A DNA stretch of 2,028 bases. Origin: a plasmid. A program made the position numbers and the translations under genes. Location: the NCBI RefSeq assembly GCF_058153355.1, contig NZ_JBLWLY010000003.1. The stretch is one strand, 5' to 3'. The notes under the pieces are model-generated. The model saw only the letters and a list, made by a program, of their open reading frames with translations, ran no database searches and was not told the DNA's origin. How positions within the stretch are numbered: the stretch's first letter is position 1; every line of letters begins with the position of its first letter. Below are positions 1 to 2,028 of the stretch, one piece after another.

Positions 1-441
1 ATGAGCAAGGACACCCAGAGAATCACCCAGATTAACGATCAAGGTGAGATTGTTGGCGGCTTCGTCGCGGTAATCAGACCCAAGCAAAAATCGTCATTTC
101 AGAGGCATTTCACTATGAACCAAGACGCATTAAAGATCCTCGCTAAGGAGCTAACGGGCGAGCAATTTAAAGTTCTAATGCTCATGCTCGCTGATCTGGA
201 TTACGAGAATTTCATCCAAATTGCACAGGCTGATATAGCGGATGCATTGGAGATGCAAAAGACCCACGTAAGCCGCGCTGTTCGTGCTCTTCTTGATGTA
301 GGCGTGATCTTTGAAGGTCCGAAAGTAGGTAGATCCAAAACCTATCGGTTGAACGAGCAATTCGGCTGGAAAGGAACAGTAAGCAATCACAAAAAAGCCC
401 TTAAAAACGGCCTCAGCGTTATACAGGGCGGCAGAACCTGA
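1..441 (+). CDS. Putative plasmid replication initiator, winged-helix HTH, RepL-like (function tentative)
   Basis: Intact 146-codon ORF beginning with ATG at position 1 and ending with TGA at 439-441. The central segment (LTGEQFKVLMLMLADLDYENFIQIAQADIADALEMQKTHVSRAVRALLDVGVI) has the pattern of a MarR/winged-helix recognition unit. Overall length and layout resemble small RepL-family replication proteins (assignment from memory of the family, not from a search). It is paired with a relaxase gene as in small plasmids. An alternative internal start exists at ATG 115-117, preceded by AGAGG at 101-105. Confidence 0.6.
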   Translation: MSKDTQRITQINDQGEIVGGFVAVIRPKQKSSFQRHFTMNQDALKILAKELTGEQFKVLMLMLADLDYENFIQIAQADIADALEMQKTHVSRAVRALLDVGVIFEGPKVGRSKTYRLNEQFGWKGTVSNHKKALKNGLSVIQGGRT

Positions 442-451
442 TCTCTGGAAT

Positions 452-476
452 GCCGCAAATGACGTCACTTTGCGGC
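452..476. terminator. Intergenic hairpin between the convergent rep-like and mob genes; candidate bidirectional terminator or protein-binding palindrome
   Basis: GCCGCAAA (452-459) and TTTGCGGC (469-476) are perfect reverse complements, flanking a 9-nt loop that contains the palindrome TGACGTCA (460-467). It sits in the 63-bp gap between the two stop codons. There is no clear U-tract on either side, so an intrinsic-terminator call is tentative. Confidence 0.4.
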
Positions 477-504
477 GTTAGCCCTATCCTGCATCGCATC
501 AAAA

Positions 505-1473
505 CTAACGCTCCATACCACCCATGCCACGCGATCGCGTCTGTCGCTGTTTTTCACGTTCAATACGCTGCTGTTTTTCCTTTTCCTGGTTTTGCTGCTT
601 AAACCGCTGAGCCATCATCAGGATTTCGGTCATCTGCTCTCTGGAAAGCCCCTTAAAAGGCTCTGTAACGCTCTGTAGGCGTTTCTGCTGCGCATCCATA
701 GTCTTCTGTAGCTCACGCGCTCTTTTTGCGTTCTGGGCGCTCTGAGAGGCCATAGCGATGGTTCCTGCAAAGCCATCGTTCACTGCGTGGCTTAGACGTT
801 TGGCTATGGCTGCCTGATCTTCCACGTCTTTGGTGAAAATGCCCTTCCGCAATACACGCGGCTCCAGCGCCTCCGGCGAGATCGATACCTGGCTACGGGT
901 GCCACGGTTTATCGATTCGTAGTAGTGCTGAACTGTCTGATGCGTGGCGCGGCTTCCCTCGATGCCGCGCTCAAGACCCAGTTTTTTTACTGATTCAGCG
1001 TAGGTGCTCTGATCTTCACGCATCTTTGACCGCCCGCCAATAAACTCTTTCGCGGACAGCCGTCCATCCTGCGTCAATGGCACCACGAACGCAGACAGGT
1101 GCGGGGTGGCCTCGTCCCGGTGAACCACCGCCGCCACAACACGATCCTTCCCGTATTTCTTCTCCAGCCATTGCTCAGAGCGGGCGAAAAACTCCGCCTG
1201 CTGCCGTGGTGTGGCCTCTTTCCACCACTCAGGGCTTGCTGTCATAACGTATTCAACGGCCAGTACCGCATCTTTACGGCGTTTTTCCGGCAGCAGCTCC
1301 CGCACACGCCCCATTGCCTGATCCGTTGATTTGGACACAGAGCAGTAGTTTTCTGGTGTCCGTTCAGCGTTAGCGTTCGGCGTCTCACGCTCTCGGTAGC
1401 AGTGCTGCAACGCGCTGGCCACGCTTCCCATTCCCGTCAGCTTTTTGCAGCGCATTATCGCGTAGTTCGCCAT
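505..1473 (-). CDS. Plasmid mobilization relaxase, Mob_Pre / MobV family
   Basis: Minus-strand ORF with stop TAG (complement of 505-507). The N-terminus MANYAIMRCKKLTGMGSVASALQHCYRERETPNANAERTPENY matches the Mob_Pre N-terminal signature (YA-x-R-x-KK ... H-x-x-RE ... N-x-N). An internal HRDEATPH segment resembles the metal-binding H-x-DE-x-x-PH motif of this family. The C-terminal ~70 residues are Q/K/E/R-rich and coiled-coil-like, as in MobM-type relaxases. I chose the start at ATG 1471-1473 because a six-G run (complement of 1477-1482) lies 3 nt upstream as a Shine-Dalgarno; the ORF track's longer start at 1492-1494 has no visible RBS. Confidence 0.85.
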   Translation of the reverse strand: MANYAIMRCKKLTGMGSVASALQHCYRERETPNANAERTPENYCSVSKSTDQAMGRVRELLPEKRRKDAVLAVEYVMTASPEWWKEATPRQQAEFFARSEQWLEKKYGKDRVVAAVVHRDEATPHLSAFVVPLTQDGRLSAKEFIGGRSKMREDQSTYAESVKKLGLERGIEGSRATHQTVQHYYESINRGTRSQVSISPEALEPRVLRKGIFTKDVEDQAAIAKRLSHAVNDGFAGTIAMASQSAQNAKRARELQKTMDAQQKRLQSVTEPFKGLSREQMTEILMMAQRFKQQNQEKEKQQRIEREKQRQTRSRGMGGMER

Positions 1474-1476
1474 GTT

Positions 1477-1482
1477 CCCCCC
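1477..1482 (-). promoter_or_regulatory. Ribosome-binding site for the relaxase gene
   Basis: Minus-strand sequence reads CAGGGGGGAAC-ATG; the G-run ends 3 nt before the ATG at 1473. Confidence 0.5.
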
Positions 1483-1539
1483 TGATTCCGGCATTCATTC
1501 AGCCAGGCGGGGGAGCGCATTGCGATACCTCCGGCGGGC

Positions 1540-1567
1540 CACTATCAAGATGATAGTGTACTCACTA
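1540..1567. other. Candidate oriT / relaxase operator: nested overlapping inverted repeats upstream of mob
   Basis: CACTATCA (1540-1547), AGA spacer, TGATAGTG (1551-1558) form a perfect 8-bp-arm inverted repeat. TAGTG (1554-1558) also pairs with CACTA (1563-1567) across loop TACT, giving mutually exclusive alternative hairpins. MobV-family oriTs (for example pMV158) are known to lie just upstream of the mob gene and to consist of overlapping inverted repeats with the nick site in a GTG-containing loop; here the segment sits ~70 bp upstream of the mob start. On the minus strand TTGATA (complement of 1544-1549) could serve as a -35 for the mob promoter. Confidence 0.45.
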
Positions 1568-1591
1568 GACTTTGCTTCGCAAAATCGTTCG

Positions 1592-1605
1592 GGCAGCAAG
1601 CTGCC
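1592..1605. repeat. Short inverted repeat GGCAGC-AA-GCTGCC
   Basis: 6-bp arms at 1592-1597 and 1600-1605 are perfect reverse complements. Function unknown; may be an accessory part of the oriT region. Confidence 0.3.
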
Positions 1606-1693
1606 AGAAGGTCAAAATCAACGGCGGTCTGGCAGGTGGAAGGCGTCGCTCCGCGCCACCCCCACCACTGCCAAGCCTGTTTTATCCGGAGTG

Positions 1694-1735
1694 TCGTCAA
1701 GGGTAAATGGCACTCGCTTCGCTCGCCCTTGACGA
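1694..1735. repeat. 10-bp-arm inverted repeat with 22-nt GAGCG-rich loop; candidate origin or single-strand initiation structure
   Basis: TCGTCAAGGG (1694-1703) and CCCTTGACGA (1726-1735) are perfect reverse complements. The loop carries CTCGCTTCGCTCGC, which is GCGAGCGAAGCGAG on the other strand. No T-tract follows on either strand, so it is not a canonical terminator. Confidence 0.5.
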
Positions 1736-1803
1736 AATCAGGCAATGAATATCGCTTTTGAAAGAGCAGGAACCGCTCGCCGCAGACTCATGACCGAACG
1801 TAG

Positions 1804-1826
1804 TGAGCGAATGAGCGAGGAAGCGG
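1804..1826 (+). repeat. Short tandem direct repeats TGAGCGA / TGAGCGA / GAAGCGGA (iteron-like)
   Basis: TGAGCGA occurs at 1804-1810 and 1812-1818, followed by the degenerate GAAGCGGA at 1819-1826. The same GAGCG core recurs in the opposite orientation at 1719-1724 (inside the hairpin loop) and at 1775-1779, and in direct orientation at 1926-1930. Confidence 0.3.
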
Positions 1827-1832
1827 AATTTC

Positions 1833-1868
1833 CACTCCCCGTACATAGAAATCCGTACACTCCGTAGC
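1833..1868 (+). repeat. Direct repeats CACTCC(CC)GTACA / CACTCCGTAGC
   Basis: CACTCC at 1833-1838 and 1858-1863; CCGTACA at 1839-1845 and 1853-1859; CCGTAGC at 1862-1868. These are three closely spaced copies of a CCGTA core. Confidence 0.3.
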
Positions 1869-1962
1869 TAAAAAACGTTGGTATTCAGAGCTAAACCGCG
1901 CGCACGCGTTATAAGATACAGAAGGAGCGATAAAAAAACGTATGTATGGCGAGGGGTTACAT

Positions 1963-1968
1963 TTGACA
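1963..1968 (+). promoter_or_regulatory. Consensus -35 hexamer TTGACA abutting the tandem operators
   Basis: Exact TTGACA at 1963-1968. AATAAT (-10-like) hexamers lie in the centre of each downstream palindrome (1977-1982 and 1998-2003), but spacing to a canonical -10 is not ideal, so the promoter geometry is uncertain. Confidence 0.3.
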
Positions 1969-1970
1969 TA

Positions 1971-2009
1971 GTTACCAATAATGGTAACACTGTTACCAAT
2001 AATGGTAAC
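1971..2009. promoter_or_regulatory. Two identical 18-bp palindromic operator-like sites (GTTACCA-ATAA-TGGTAAC), centre-to-centre 21 bp
   Basis: Copy 1 is 1971-1988 and copy 2 is 1992-2009, identical at 18 of 18 positions. Each has 7-bp arms (GTTACCA and TGGTAAC) around ATAA. A 21-bp offset is two helical turns, the typical arrangement for cooperative binding of a dimeric HTH protein on one DNA face. Confidence 0.55.
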
Positions 2010-2028
2010 TCAAGATAGGTTATTTTCG

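Follow-up and report, generated by a model that had tools for sequence, protein, structure and literature searches.

Is the 2,028-nt stretch of plasmid DNA analysed here (the window) a complete replicon in its own right, and if so, how might so small a molecule replicate and move between cells? An earlier note, made from the sequence alone, had proposed a complete circular mobilizable-type replicon of about 2 kb, and comparison with deposited plasmids bears this out. The window matches pB349aT_3 (NZ_CP091776.1), a complete circular plasmid, at 100% identity, and PLSDB contains at least 16 records of 2028–2033 bp with at least 99.7% identity to it. AP022430.1, a 2028-bp record from Klebsiella sp. 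(Tokyo), reproduces the window exactly but in rotated form (offset 1946), and the linear contig NZ_CP040075.1 carries window positions 1207–2028 fused directly to 1–444, so that the 2028/1 junction is internal. The ends are thus contiguous in independent sequence, and the junction is covered by independent assemblies with other start points. The start at an ATG, which had been offered as evidence for a circle, has no such value: 14 of the 16 PLSDB records begin at the same base as the window, so this start probably reflects a convention of record rotation rather than a biological end.

A contig of this kind could in general have been cut from a larger replicon or have arisen as an artefact of assembly, for instance by collapse of a repeat or by splitting of a dimer, and some relatives have been deposited as dimers or cointegrates (records of 4460 and 8913 bp). 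Here, we consider this virtually impossible and reject it. The 16 same-length records are independent, coming from differing laboratories, hosts and countries, and the exact rotation and the junction-spanning contig argue against a fragment, as does the lack of any chromosomal copy among 5,426 complete E. coli genomes, in which all 304 matching places were on plasmids. The window is the whole of a circular 2,028-bp plasmid, identical to known records and deposited from E. coli, Shigella and Klebsiella.

The gene content anticipated in the note, one Rep-like gene, one relaxase and a cis region of ~530 bp, was found as a 146-aa open reading frame at 1–441 (+ strand), a 322-aa MobV gene at 505–1473 (− strand) and 555 bp of non-coding DNA at 1474–2028. 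These resolve into a MOB module (~505–1690) and a REP module (~1694–2028 plus 1–504). The joint explanation that fits best, and in which we have high confidence, is that this is the known plasmid pB349aT_3, composed of a pBBR1-type MOB module and a RepL-like REP module. The plasmid has been deposited many times and is real, neatly minimal and already known; because its mobV is annotated and PLSDB types it as ‘mobilizable, MOBV’, we claim no discovery. Our search of the literature found no experiments on it. The suggestion that it is among the smallest mobilizable replicons holds insofar as it is small, but it is neither unique nor the smallest: PLSDB contains dozens of relatives of 2.0–2.4 kb, and pBckp091-3 fits the same pair of genes into 1,978 bp.

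The mobV product is a relaxase of the MOBV family, of pBBR1 type. It scores 162 bits against NCBIfam NF041497 (cut-off 100), matches Pfam Mob_Pre (PF01076) at E = 5.4e-45 over model positions 1–195 of 196, and its relaxase domain is homologous to that of pMV158 MobM, the MOBV1 prototype (structure 4LVI, E = 2e-15), whose catalytic His22 corresponds to His23 in the alignment. Motif I (HxxR) is present as H23-C-Y-R26, aligned to H22-N-E-R of MobM, and is conserved in five relatives. The protein differs from MobM in length (322 versus 494 aa) and in motif III, which reads HRDEATPHLS, so that the third His of the MobM motif HxDExxPHuH is replaced by Ser. A Shine-Dalgarno sequence, AGGGGGG (1477–1483), lies 3 nt before the mobV ATG.

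Upstream of mobV, a predicted oriT core occupies 1540–1586 on the mob-sense (−) strand and consists of hairpin A (1586–1568), the spacer TAGTGAG/TA with the predicted nick at 1561/1560, and hairpin B (1558–1540). The nick region reads ATTTTGCGAAGCAAAGTCTAGTGAG/T, and the minimal oriT of pMV158 is ACTTTATGAATATAAAGTATAGTGTG/ (PMC3105389). The two origins share a 7-bp hairpin, a GAA(T) loop, 8 nt and a G/T nick, are identical at 19 of 27 positions, and differ at two stem pairs that have changed compensatorily. Searching with the pMV158 14-mer (up to two mismatches) gave a single match in the window, at oriT, and a match in 1 of 200 shuffles. In relatives whose Mob is 50–66% identical, the sequence AAAGTCTAGTGAGTA stands unchanged 81–88 nt ahead of the mob ATG, and both hairpins, predicted by folding, vary in sequence yet retain pairing. 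Taken at the level of sequence, the element is homologous to known oriTs; we infer a nick at 1561|1560 and mobilization of the plasmid. MobV would bind the hairpin-flanked oriT, which lies ~87 nt ahead of mobV, and use its catalytic His23 to cut the mob-sense strand at this G/T; it would then lead the nicked strand into a recipient, with a conjugative plasmid in the same cell supplying the mating pore.

The textbook analogue is pBBR1 from Bordetella bronchiseptica (NC_025015.1, 2,687 bp), the model minimal MOBV mobilizable plasmid, which likewise has two genes, rep and mob, with oriT just upstream of mob. Its 329-aa Mob is 55% identical to the window protein over residues 1–279 (E = 4e-114) and has the same HxDExxPHx(S/T) variant of motif III; the oriT core AAAGTCTAGTGAGTA is identical and flanked by two hairpins, and DNA identity is 72% over the 5′ part of mob plus oriT. 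However, the Rep of pBBR1 (225 aa) is unrelated to the 146-aa window Rep (no BLASTP match at E ≤ 10), the ssiA-like element and palindromic operators described below are not in pBBR1 DNA, and the window plasmid is 659 bp shorter. A conserved stretch at 1590–1690 travels with the mob/oriT module: it is 97% identical beside the mobV gene of pDEC5B-3, a 9.5-kb ColE1-type plasmid, and 97–98% identical over nearly its whole length in three relatives of ~2.0–2.2 kb (L009, L010 and L012), with a partial alignment in L011.

A decayed relaxase would leave the plasmid non-mobilizable in practice and spread only vertically or by transformation or transduction. The Ser in place of the third metal-binding His could be read this way, MOB-suite calls several relatives, and even pBBR1, non-mobilizable, and the literature search turned up no transfer experiments with this plasmid. 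Nonetheless, we regard decay as improbable. The Mob of pBBR1 has HRDETSPHMT, with the same HxDExxPHxS/T substitution, so the Ser is a trait of the pBBR1 clade rather than a sign of decay, and PMC12282955 lists pBBR1 among model mobilizable plasmids. Moreover, mobV is intact and conserved across relatives of 50–66% identity, the nick region is invariant with covarying hairpins, and identical plasmids have been recovered from Escherichia, Shigella and Klebsiella across several continents. The typing of pBBR1 and several relatives as non-mobilizable despite encoding MobV is an annotation gap.

The REP module is less readily classified. Its gene, rep (1–441, + strand), encodes a 146-aa winged-helix, RepL-like replication protein that RefSeq/PGAP names ‘MarR family transcriptional regulator’. 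The AlphaFold model (pLDDT 89.9) contains a single winged helix-turn-helix at residues 39–122, a plain winged helix for which no initiator-specific structural match was found. Searches against Pfam and NCBIfam replication families gave nothing significant, including Rep_1, Rep_2, Rep_trans and Rep_3 in Pfam; the top matches were generic HTH families, and the phage O N-terminal domain, at E of about 4e-3 to 5e-4, stayed below the cut-off. RepL (PF05732) is not among the Pfam matches of the window protein with E ≤ 10, yet it is matched by 24 of 66 family members at E ≤ 0.001 (best 3.8e-8), and homologues with 69% and 43% identity carry RepL annotation. A 92%-identical Rep is the sole annotated CDS of circular plasmids of 1.45–1.6 kb, and a 73%-identical one is found on a 1,306-bp plasmid. 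Relative to the rep of a 1507-bp plasmid, there are 74 synonymous and 12 non-synonymous codon differences; on this comparison, purifying selection on rep is strong. The N-terminal motif ITQ(I/V)D..GE is conserved in relatives, which supports the ATG at position 1, and the conserved TGE lies outside the DNA-binding domain. We infer that Rep is the replication initiator.

Operator-like elements had been noted at the 3′ end of the window, and these were strongly confirmed. A repeat search identified two putative Rep operators, O1 (1971–1988) and O2 (1992–2009), each the 18-bp palindrome GTTACCAATAATGGTAAC and 21 bp apart, which overlap the promoter spacer, the −10 and the transcription start. This layout is kept at the same position in seven plasmids, whose half-sites vary symmetrically (GTTACC, GTTATC or GTTGAC) and track Rep residue 89 in all seven, with His accompanying GTTACC, Asn GTTATC and Gln GTTGAC. 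Operator and Rep therefore covary across these sequences; residue 89 is His in 26 and Asn in 25 of the 66 family members. The accompanying promoter-like and RBS-like elements proved less clear-cut. The putative rep promoter (1963–1990, + strand) has a perfect −35, TTGACA (1963–1968), a 16-nt spacer and TG at 1982–1983, and the arrangement of −35, 16–18 nt and TAACnT recurs in six relatives, but its −10, TAACAC (1985–1990), is weak, matching the consensus at three of six positions, and a consensus promoter scan on the rotated record reported none. Similarly, AGGT (2017–2020, + strand) precedes the rep ATG by 8 nt, counted through the junction, and relatives have a stronger GGGAG or GGAGG at this place, but as a Shine-Dalgarno sequence the window copy is weak.

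Upstream of the operators lies a 12-nt candidate origin core, AAGATACAGAAG (1913–1924, + strand). It occurs once, on the + strand, in all fetched loci with this rep family except L005, which has a copy with one mismatch, and in the six loci measured the rep start follows it after 114–124 nt. The sequence flanking the core is not conserved, and the core is absent from pKL1, ColE1-type, pBBR1 and mob-only loci. It is a candidate start or nick site, or a site for a host factor.

Farther upstream, 1753–1830 (+ strand; CCGCTCGCCGCAG...GAGCGAGGAAGCGGAA) resembles the ssiA (n′-pas) element of ColE1-type plasmids. It is matched by >5,000 plasmid records and aligns with pKL1, a 1.5-kb plasmid, pPCP1 and pSE11-5. 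In two ColE1-type plasmids its counterpart is ~500–600 nt from RNAI on the RNAII-downstream side, and ssiA has been described at that site, on the downstream side of RNAII, in ColE1-type plasmids (PMC3167613). In pKL1, and in every RepL-like locus checked where it was found, the element is upstream of rep on the rep-sense strand. Its sequence marks it as homologous to the ColE1-type elements, and it is probably a PriA primosome assembly site; the strand on which it acts, and the direction of replication, may be suggested by analogy with ColE1 only.

Two further inverted repeats were found in non-coding DNA. Between the converging rep and mob genes, a palindrome at 449–479 (I6; AATGCCGCAAA-9 nt-TTTGCGGCGTT, central TGACGTCA) folds at −10.5 kcal/mol (z = −2.3) and is kept in relatives, in inverted orientation in the 1507-bp plasmid. 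No T-run follows it on either strand; it may act as a terminator or as a hairpin for single-strand initiation. The other (I8, 1694–1735) is a 10-bp inverted repeat with a 22-nt loop (TCGTCAAGGG / CCCTTGACGA; −11.1 kcal/mol, z = −2.0); a Salmonella plasmid of 1526 bp that lacks mob has it as well, close upstream of its ssiA-like element, and pDEC5B-3 has it inverted.

We hypothesize that Rep dimers bind the two palindromic operators overlapping the rep promoter, and that this binding would bring about autorepression and, most likely, origin recognition. The AAGATACAGAAG core, ~50 bp upstream of the operators, would be the candidate start site, and the ssiA-like element on the same strand would recruit the PriA primosome for complementary-strand synthesis, which is consistent with the absence of DnaA boxes (neither a DnaA box with up to one mismatch nor an IHF core was found in the window). 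Two familiar classes do not fit. An iteron-type theta replicon was rejected, as there are only two repeats, each palindromic and overlapping the promoter, and Rep has a single winged helix with no Rep_3 match. A ColE1-type replicon was rejected as well, the ssiA-like element being all that is held in common: neither RNAI nor any other Rfam family was detected in the window at E ≤ 1, while RNAI was detected in control ColE1-type loci.

Replication might proceed by rolling circle, as has been proposed for staphylococcal RepL/pSN2 plasmids, with operator-bound Rep promoting a + strand nick at or near AAGATACAGAAG and the ssiA-like element serving as the single-strand origin that converts the displaced + strand. 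We hold this as a tentative possibility, on the doubtful side. Members of the Rep family match Pfam RepL, and RepL/pSN2 plasmids are classed as rolling-circle, with a small (~18 kDa) HTH initiator whose specificity region, residues 85–95 (PMC5703833), parallels the covariation of Rep residue 89 with the operators. Variable binding sites beside an invariant core are the usual layout of a double-strand origin, the ssiA-like element is always upstream of the core on the rep-sense strand, and MobV/Pre relaxases are common on rolling-circle plasmids such as pMV158 (5.5 kb, Rep_2 initiator). However, the window Rep itself has no RepL match, nothing resembling a known double-strand origin was found, and the pBBR1 MOB module also resides on a plasmid with an unrelated Rep. 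An initiator of the HUH rolling-circle class we reject: the 66 family members contain no HUH motif and no invariant Tyr or His (Tyr115 is present in 51 and replaced by Phe or Leu in the others), and there is no match to Rep_1, Rep_2 or Rep_trans. The pSN2-family plasmids are also from Gram-positive bacteria, reportedly lack mobilization functions and have an RNA-polymerase-dependent ssoA (PMC5703833), a single-strand origin that differs from the ColE1-type ssiA-like element here.

An uncharacterised mode of initiation is unlikely, though conceivable, on the makeup of the rep cassette: a single winged helix without nuclease or primase motif, two operators, AAGATACAGAAG 114–124 nt before rep and a same-strand ssiA. 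A repressor-like dimer would open or mark the core and the host PriA primosome would do the rest; if true, this mode would fall outside classical iteron theta, ColE1, ColE2 and HUH rolling-circle replication. Finally, the 146-aa protein might be a transcriptional regulator only, with host enzymes replicating the plasmid from cis elements in a ColE1-like manner. Its PGAP name, its generic HTH matches and the ColE1-type ssiA-like element favor this reading, but we judge it highly improbable given the lack of RNAI/RNAII or other Rfam families even at E ≤ 1, the RepL matches of family members and the conserved TGE motif outside the DNA-binding domain. In addition, the protein, operator cassette and AAGATACAGAAG are the sole part common to circular plasmids of 1.3–2.4 kb that are otherwise unlike in sequence.

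The closest counterparts of the RepL-like REP module are the cryptic plasmids of 1.3–1.6 kb typed Col(MG828) from E. coli and Klebsiella, such as pMUB-MIN14-9 (1,507 bp) and pAVS0193-D (1,306 bp). They share a Rep of 92% (or 73%) identity, the promoter and two-palindrome layout, the ssiA-like element, the palindrome after rep and the AAGATACAGAAG core, with one mismatch in the 1,507-bp plasmid. They differ in having neither relaxase nor oriT, and their remaining ~0.7 kb of backbone is unlike that of the window. The window plasmid receives no replicon type from MOB-suite/PLSDB and is not Col(MG828), a label common to pKL1 and RepL-like plasmids, which have differing Rep genes on a ~0.6–0.7 kb backbone that is ~90% identical. 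The E. coli plasmid pKL1 (NC_002145, 1,549 bp) is likewise tiny, with one small HTH Rep and an ssiA-like element 86% identical to that of the window. Its RepA binds repeats upstream of its own gene (Burian et al.; PMC3832669). However, RepA shares only 23% identity with the window Rep (pairwise E = 0.007), and pKL1 has neither the AAGATACAGAAG core nor a mob gene.

The plasmid combines a working replicon and a relaxase-based transfer module in ~2.0 kb, 25% less than pBBR1, and may offer a natural starting point for building very small mobilizable vectors, although its practical value is modest. It also exposes gaps in annotation, with its Rep named a “MarR regulator” and its replicon left without a type. 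The RepL-like family ranks among the most frequent mini-plasmid families in Enterobacteriaceae, and its proteins routinely carry the wrong label, ‘MarR regulator’.

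A megablast search of the 2,028-base sequence against 72,556 plasmid records returned a 100% full-length match to the circular, 2,028-bp E. coli plasmid pB349aT_3 (NZ_CP091776.1), together with 15 more records of 2,028–2,033 bp that are at least 99.7% identical to the window. The near-identical records come from E. coli, from Shigella flexneri and from one Klebsiella species, in isolates from humans, pigs, poultry and one horse as well as from pork and wastewater. The window matched 254 of 5,426 complete E. coli genomes, in 304 places, every one of them on a plasmid and none chromosomal. 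The ends of the window are joined in other records: the Klebsiella record AP022430.1 is the window exactly, rotated to begin at base 1947, and in the linear contig NZ_CP040075.1 window 1207–2028 is followed directly by 1–444. This 1,265-bp contig, whose Rep is 100% identical, was rejected as a minimal replicon because it covers only part of the same plasmid, in linear form and with a truncated mob; it is still informative in that it crosses the 2028/1 junction. An earlier note had proposed a complete, circular, minimal mobilizable replicon, and the joined ends together with the match to circular pB349aT_3 support that interpretation, mobilizability itself being a prediction. The same note had read significance into the ATG at base 1, which does not hold up: 14 of the 16 records share this start base and strand, so we infer that the start is a product of record rotation to the gene start rather than a biological end. 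One variant (NZ_CP063339.1, 2,033 bp), 99.6% identical and 5 bp longer, has rep annotated only as a 62-aa ‘replication protein’, probably owing to indel sequencing errors; possibly its rep is disrupted in reality.

Two converging genes make up 69.5% of the plasmid, which has a G+C content of 52.4%. The rep gene (1–441, plus strand) and mobV (505–1473, minus strand) are separated by 63 bp, and a 555-bp non-coding stretch lies at 1474–2028, much as anticipated from one Rep-like protein, one relaxase and one cis region of ~530 bp. The plasmid combines a MOB module of the pBBR1 type with the Rep cassette of Col(MG828)-associated mini-plasmids. Its size, which the earlier note expected to be among the smallest for MobV replicons, is indeed 659 bp below that of pBBR1, but a still smaller plasmid of this kind exists, the relative pBckp091-3, which holds the same two genes within 1,978 bp. 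It has been deposited many times, with mobV annotated and the plasmid typed as mobilizable/MOBV, and the described object is therefore already known. No paper on the 2.0-kb plasmid was found in the literature searched; the nearest mention is a 3,348-bp MOBV2 plasmid with a RepL-like gene from E. coli, remarked as unusual among Enterobacteriaceae (PMC8148099). MOB-suite assigns the window plasmid no replicon type. The rep product is labeled ‘MarR family transcriptional regulator’ by RefSeq/PGAP and elsewhere ‘helix-turn-helix domain-containing protein’, ‘lipoprotein’ or ‘biotin operon repressor’.

The 322-aa Mob scored 162 bits on the NCBIfam MobV model (cut-off 100), covered the entire Pfam Mob_Pre model (E = 5e-45) and matched the MobM relaxase domain structure 4LVI (E = 2e-15), with His23 aligned to the catalytic His22. 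The pBBR1 Mob sequence, used as query, matched NC_025015.1 (pBBR1, 2,687 bp) at 100%. This pBBR1 Mob is 55% identical to the window Mob over residues 1–279 (E = 4e-114) and nearly equal in length (329 versus 322 aa). Motif III of MobM-type relaxases is HxDExxPHuH (PMC3105389), whereas the window Mob has HRDEATPHLS (residues 115–124; window 1102–1131, minus strand), with Ser in place of the third His of MobM’s three-histidine metal site. The third His is also changed in the four closest gammaproteobacterial relatives (Mob 50–66% identical), Ser occurring in three relatives, and pBBR1 Mob has HRDETSPHMT with Thr at this position; a Psychrobacter relative has lost the Glu and second His of the motif as well (HRDISTPQLV). 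Relaxase decay was rejected as a reading of the missing His, since the change is common to relatives and pBBR1. The absence is instead a trait of the pBBR1 clade, in which metal coordination must differ from that of MobM. PLSDB/MOB-suite calls pBBR1, NZ_CP050825.1 and NZ_CP100093.1 ‘non-mobilizable’; all three encode MobV (intact in the latter two), and these calls are false negatives of mobility typing in this relaxase clade. The mob gene is not listed in the PLSDB gene table of pBBR1.

Read along the mob-sense (minus) strand, window 1585→1560 is ATTTTGCGAAGCAAAGTCTAGTGAG/T, to be compared with ACTTTATGAATATAAAGTATAGTGTG/, the minimal oriT of pMV158 as defined by experiment (PMC3105389). Both have a 7-bp hairpin, a GAA(T) loop and an 8-nt spacer followed by G/T, and two stem pairs differ compensatorily. 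The pMV158 14-mer, allowing up to two mismatches, has a single match in the window, at this spot, and matched in only 1 of 200 shuffles; a tighter pattern was designed after the match was known and is not independent evidence. The sequence AAAGTCTAGTGAGTA is invariant in plasmids with Mobs 66%, 57% and 50% identical, where it lies 81–88 nt before the mob ATG, and in pBBR1. Of the two hairpins flanking the nick region (oriT, 1540–1586, minus strand), hairpin A varies across relatives as GAYTTTRC…GYAAAGTC, and hairpin B is wholly changed in sequence with its pairing always kept (CACTATCA/TGATAGTG, CTCTTG/CAAGAG, CACTTC/GAAGTG, ACTCAA/TTGAGT). Pairing was judged by folding each relative separately, since MAFFT misaligned hairpin B. 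The nick is predicted to fall, on the minus strand, between 1561 and 1560, and the mode of transfer would follow straightforwardly from pBBR1 and pMV158. The adjoining 100 bp (1590–1690) move with the MOB module, being 97% identical beside mobV in the 9.5-kb, ColE1-type plasmid pDEC5B-3.

By itself, Rep gives only weak generic HTH matches, and the phage replication protein O N-terminal domain falls below threshold (E = 0.0036 in Pfam, 0.00046 for TIGR01610). Its family comprises 1,370 clusters at 50% identity (E ≤ 0.001). Of 66 diverse members that were aligned, 24 match Pfam RepL at E ≤ 0.001 and 48 do so at E ≤ 0.1, and homologues 69% and 43% identical carry a RepL annotation. Circular 1.45–1.6 kb plasmids have a 92%-identical Rep as their sole annotated CDS, and a 1,306-bp plasmid carries a 73%-identical one. 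Context and family indicate that the protein encoded at 1–441 is a plasmid replication protein. Against the relaxase-free 1,507-bp plasmid pMUB-MIN14-9, 74 codons of rep are changed synonymously and 12 non-synonymously, a pattern which indicates strong purifying selection. The N-terminal tail outside the winged helix bears a near-invariant T-G-E (60, 65 and 62 of the 66 members; alignment A2 of the family), the window Rep having Q-G-E there (residues 14–16; window 40–48). This motif could serve to contact a host replication factor.

Upstream of the rep ATG, across the junction, are a −35 element TTGACA (1963–1968) and two copies, 21 bp apart, of the palindrome GTTACCAATAATGGTAAC (1971–1988 and 1992–2009). 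This operator layout is identical in seven plasmids with Rep variants, in which the half-sites switch symmetrically among GTTACC, GTTATC and GTTGAC. Rep residue 89 (window 265–267), at the start of the recognition helix, matches the half-site type in all seven: His89 occurs with GTTACC in two otherwise divergent Reps, Asn89 with GTTATC in four and Gln89 with GTTGAC in one, a one-to-one covariation with the fifth base of the half-site (7/7 plasmids). Across the 66 family members, residue 89 is His in 26 and Asn in 25. Good comparative evidence thus suggests that Rep dimers bind both operators, and residue 89 is a candidate single-residue switch of specificity or incompatibility. Because the operators overlie the promoter spacer, the start region and a weak −10 (TGgTAACAC), the natural reading is that Rep represses its own gene. 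The operator-like element of the earlier note is borne out by duplication, conserved layout and covariation. Its promoter-like element keeps a good −35, but the −10 is weak and a consensus scan of the rotated record called no promoter; its RBS-like element exists as AGGT 8 nt before the ATG, but is weak, relatives having GGGAG or GGAGG there. A consensus terminator scan of the rotated record gave 2 matches versus 2.2 expected by chance, one being the operator palindrome. The operator sequence TAATGGTAAC resembles the XerD arm; a Xer/cer-like site was rejected, as a XerC arm is missing and the symmetric sites occur in duplicate and covary with Rep.

Our replication model is less certain than that for transfer. 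The best candidate for an origin core is AAGATACAGAAG (1913–1924, plus strand). It occurs once, on the plus strand, in every fetched locus with this rep family except L005 (NZ_CP069656.1), which has a one-mismatch copy; it precedes rep by 114–124 nt in the six loci for which the distance was measured, and the sequence on either side of it lacks conservation. No copy occurs in the pKL1, ColE1-type, pBBR1 or mob-only loci. Further upstream, an ssiA-like element (1753–1830) has a homologous segment in >5,000 plasmid records, including pKL1 and the ColE1-type pPCP1 and pSE11-5. In the latter two it lies ~500–600 nt from RNAI on the RNAII-downstream side, the location at which the PriA primosome assembly site ssiA (n'-pas) was described (PMC3167613). 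The element is upstream of rep on the rep-sense strand in pKL1 and in all RepL-like loci checked where it was found. Scans of the window found no DnaA boxes (≤1 mismatch) or IHF cores, and an Rfam scan (E ≤ 1) found no RNAI/RNAII or other known RNA. We favor a model in which initiation would be Rep-dependent and DnaA-independent, near the core and operators, and priming would be PriA-dependent at the ssiA-like element.

Rolling-circle replication is a serious rival, if the less likely reading. RepL/pSN2 plasmids are classed as rolling-circle, with an HTH initiator of ~18 kDa whose specificity region spans residues 85–95 (PMC5703833), and an invariant core adjoined by a variable binding site is reminiscent of a double-strand origin. 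The absence of conserved nuclease residues from the Rep family argues against a rolling circle, the 66-member alignment containing neither an HUH motif nor any invariant Tyr or His.

The Col(MG828) label is common to pKL1 (NC_002145) and to 1.3–1.5 kb plasmids (NZ_CP069656.1, NZ_CP124459.1). These share ~0.6–0.7 kb of non-rep backbone, ~90% identical and including the ssiA-like element, whereas the Rep of the 1.3–1.5 kb plasmids is only 23% identical to pKL1 RepA. The label thus tracks the cis backbone rather than the rep gene, two distinct rep-operator cassettes having been swapped onto it. Also at 23% identity, pKL1 RepA was rejected as a close homologue of the window Rep.

Three further features were noted outside the two genes. 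AP022430.1 annotates a 49-aa hypothetical protein at window 1697–1846 (minus strand); this ORF is probably spurious, because it overlaps the ssiA-like element, whose interior varies by insertions among relatives. Between the converging genes, a near-perfect 31-bp palindrome centered on TGACGTCA (449–479) is kept in relatives, with its orientation reversed in the 1,507-bp plasmid, and is not a classical intrinsic terminator because no T-run follows. Immediately before the ssiA-like element, at 1694–1735, two 10-bp inverted arms enclose a 22-nt loop; this repeat recurs in a 1,526-bp Salmonella plasmid that lacks mob and, in inverted orientation, next to mobV of pDEC5B-3.
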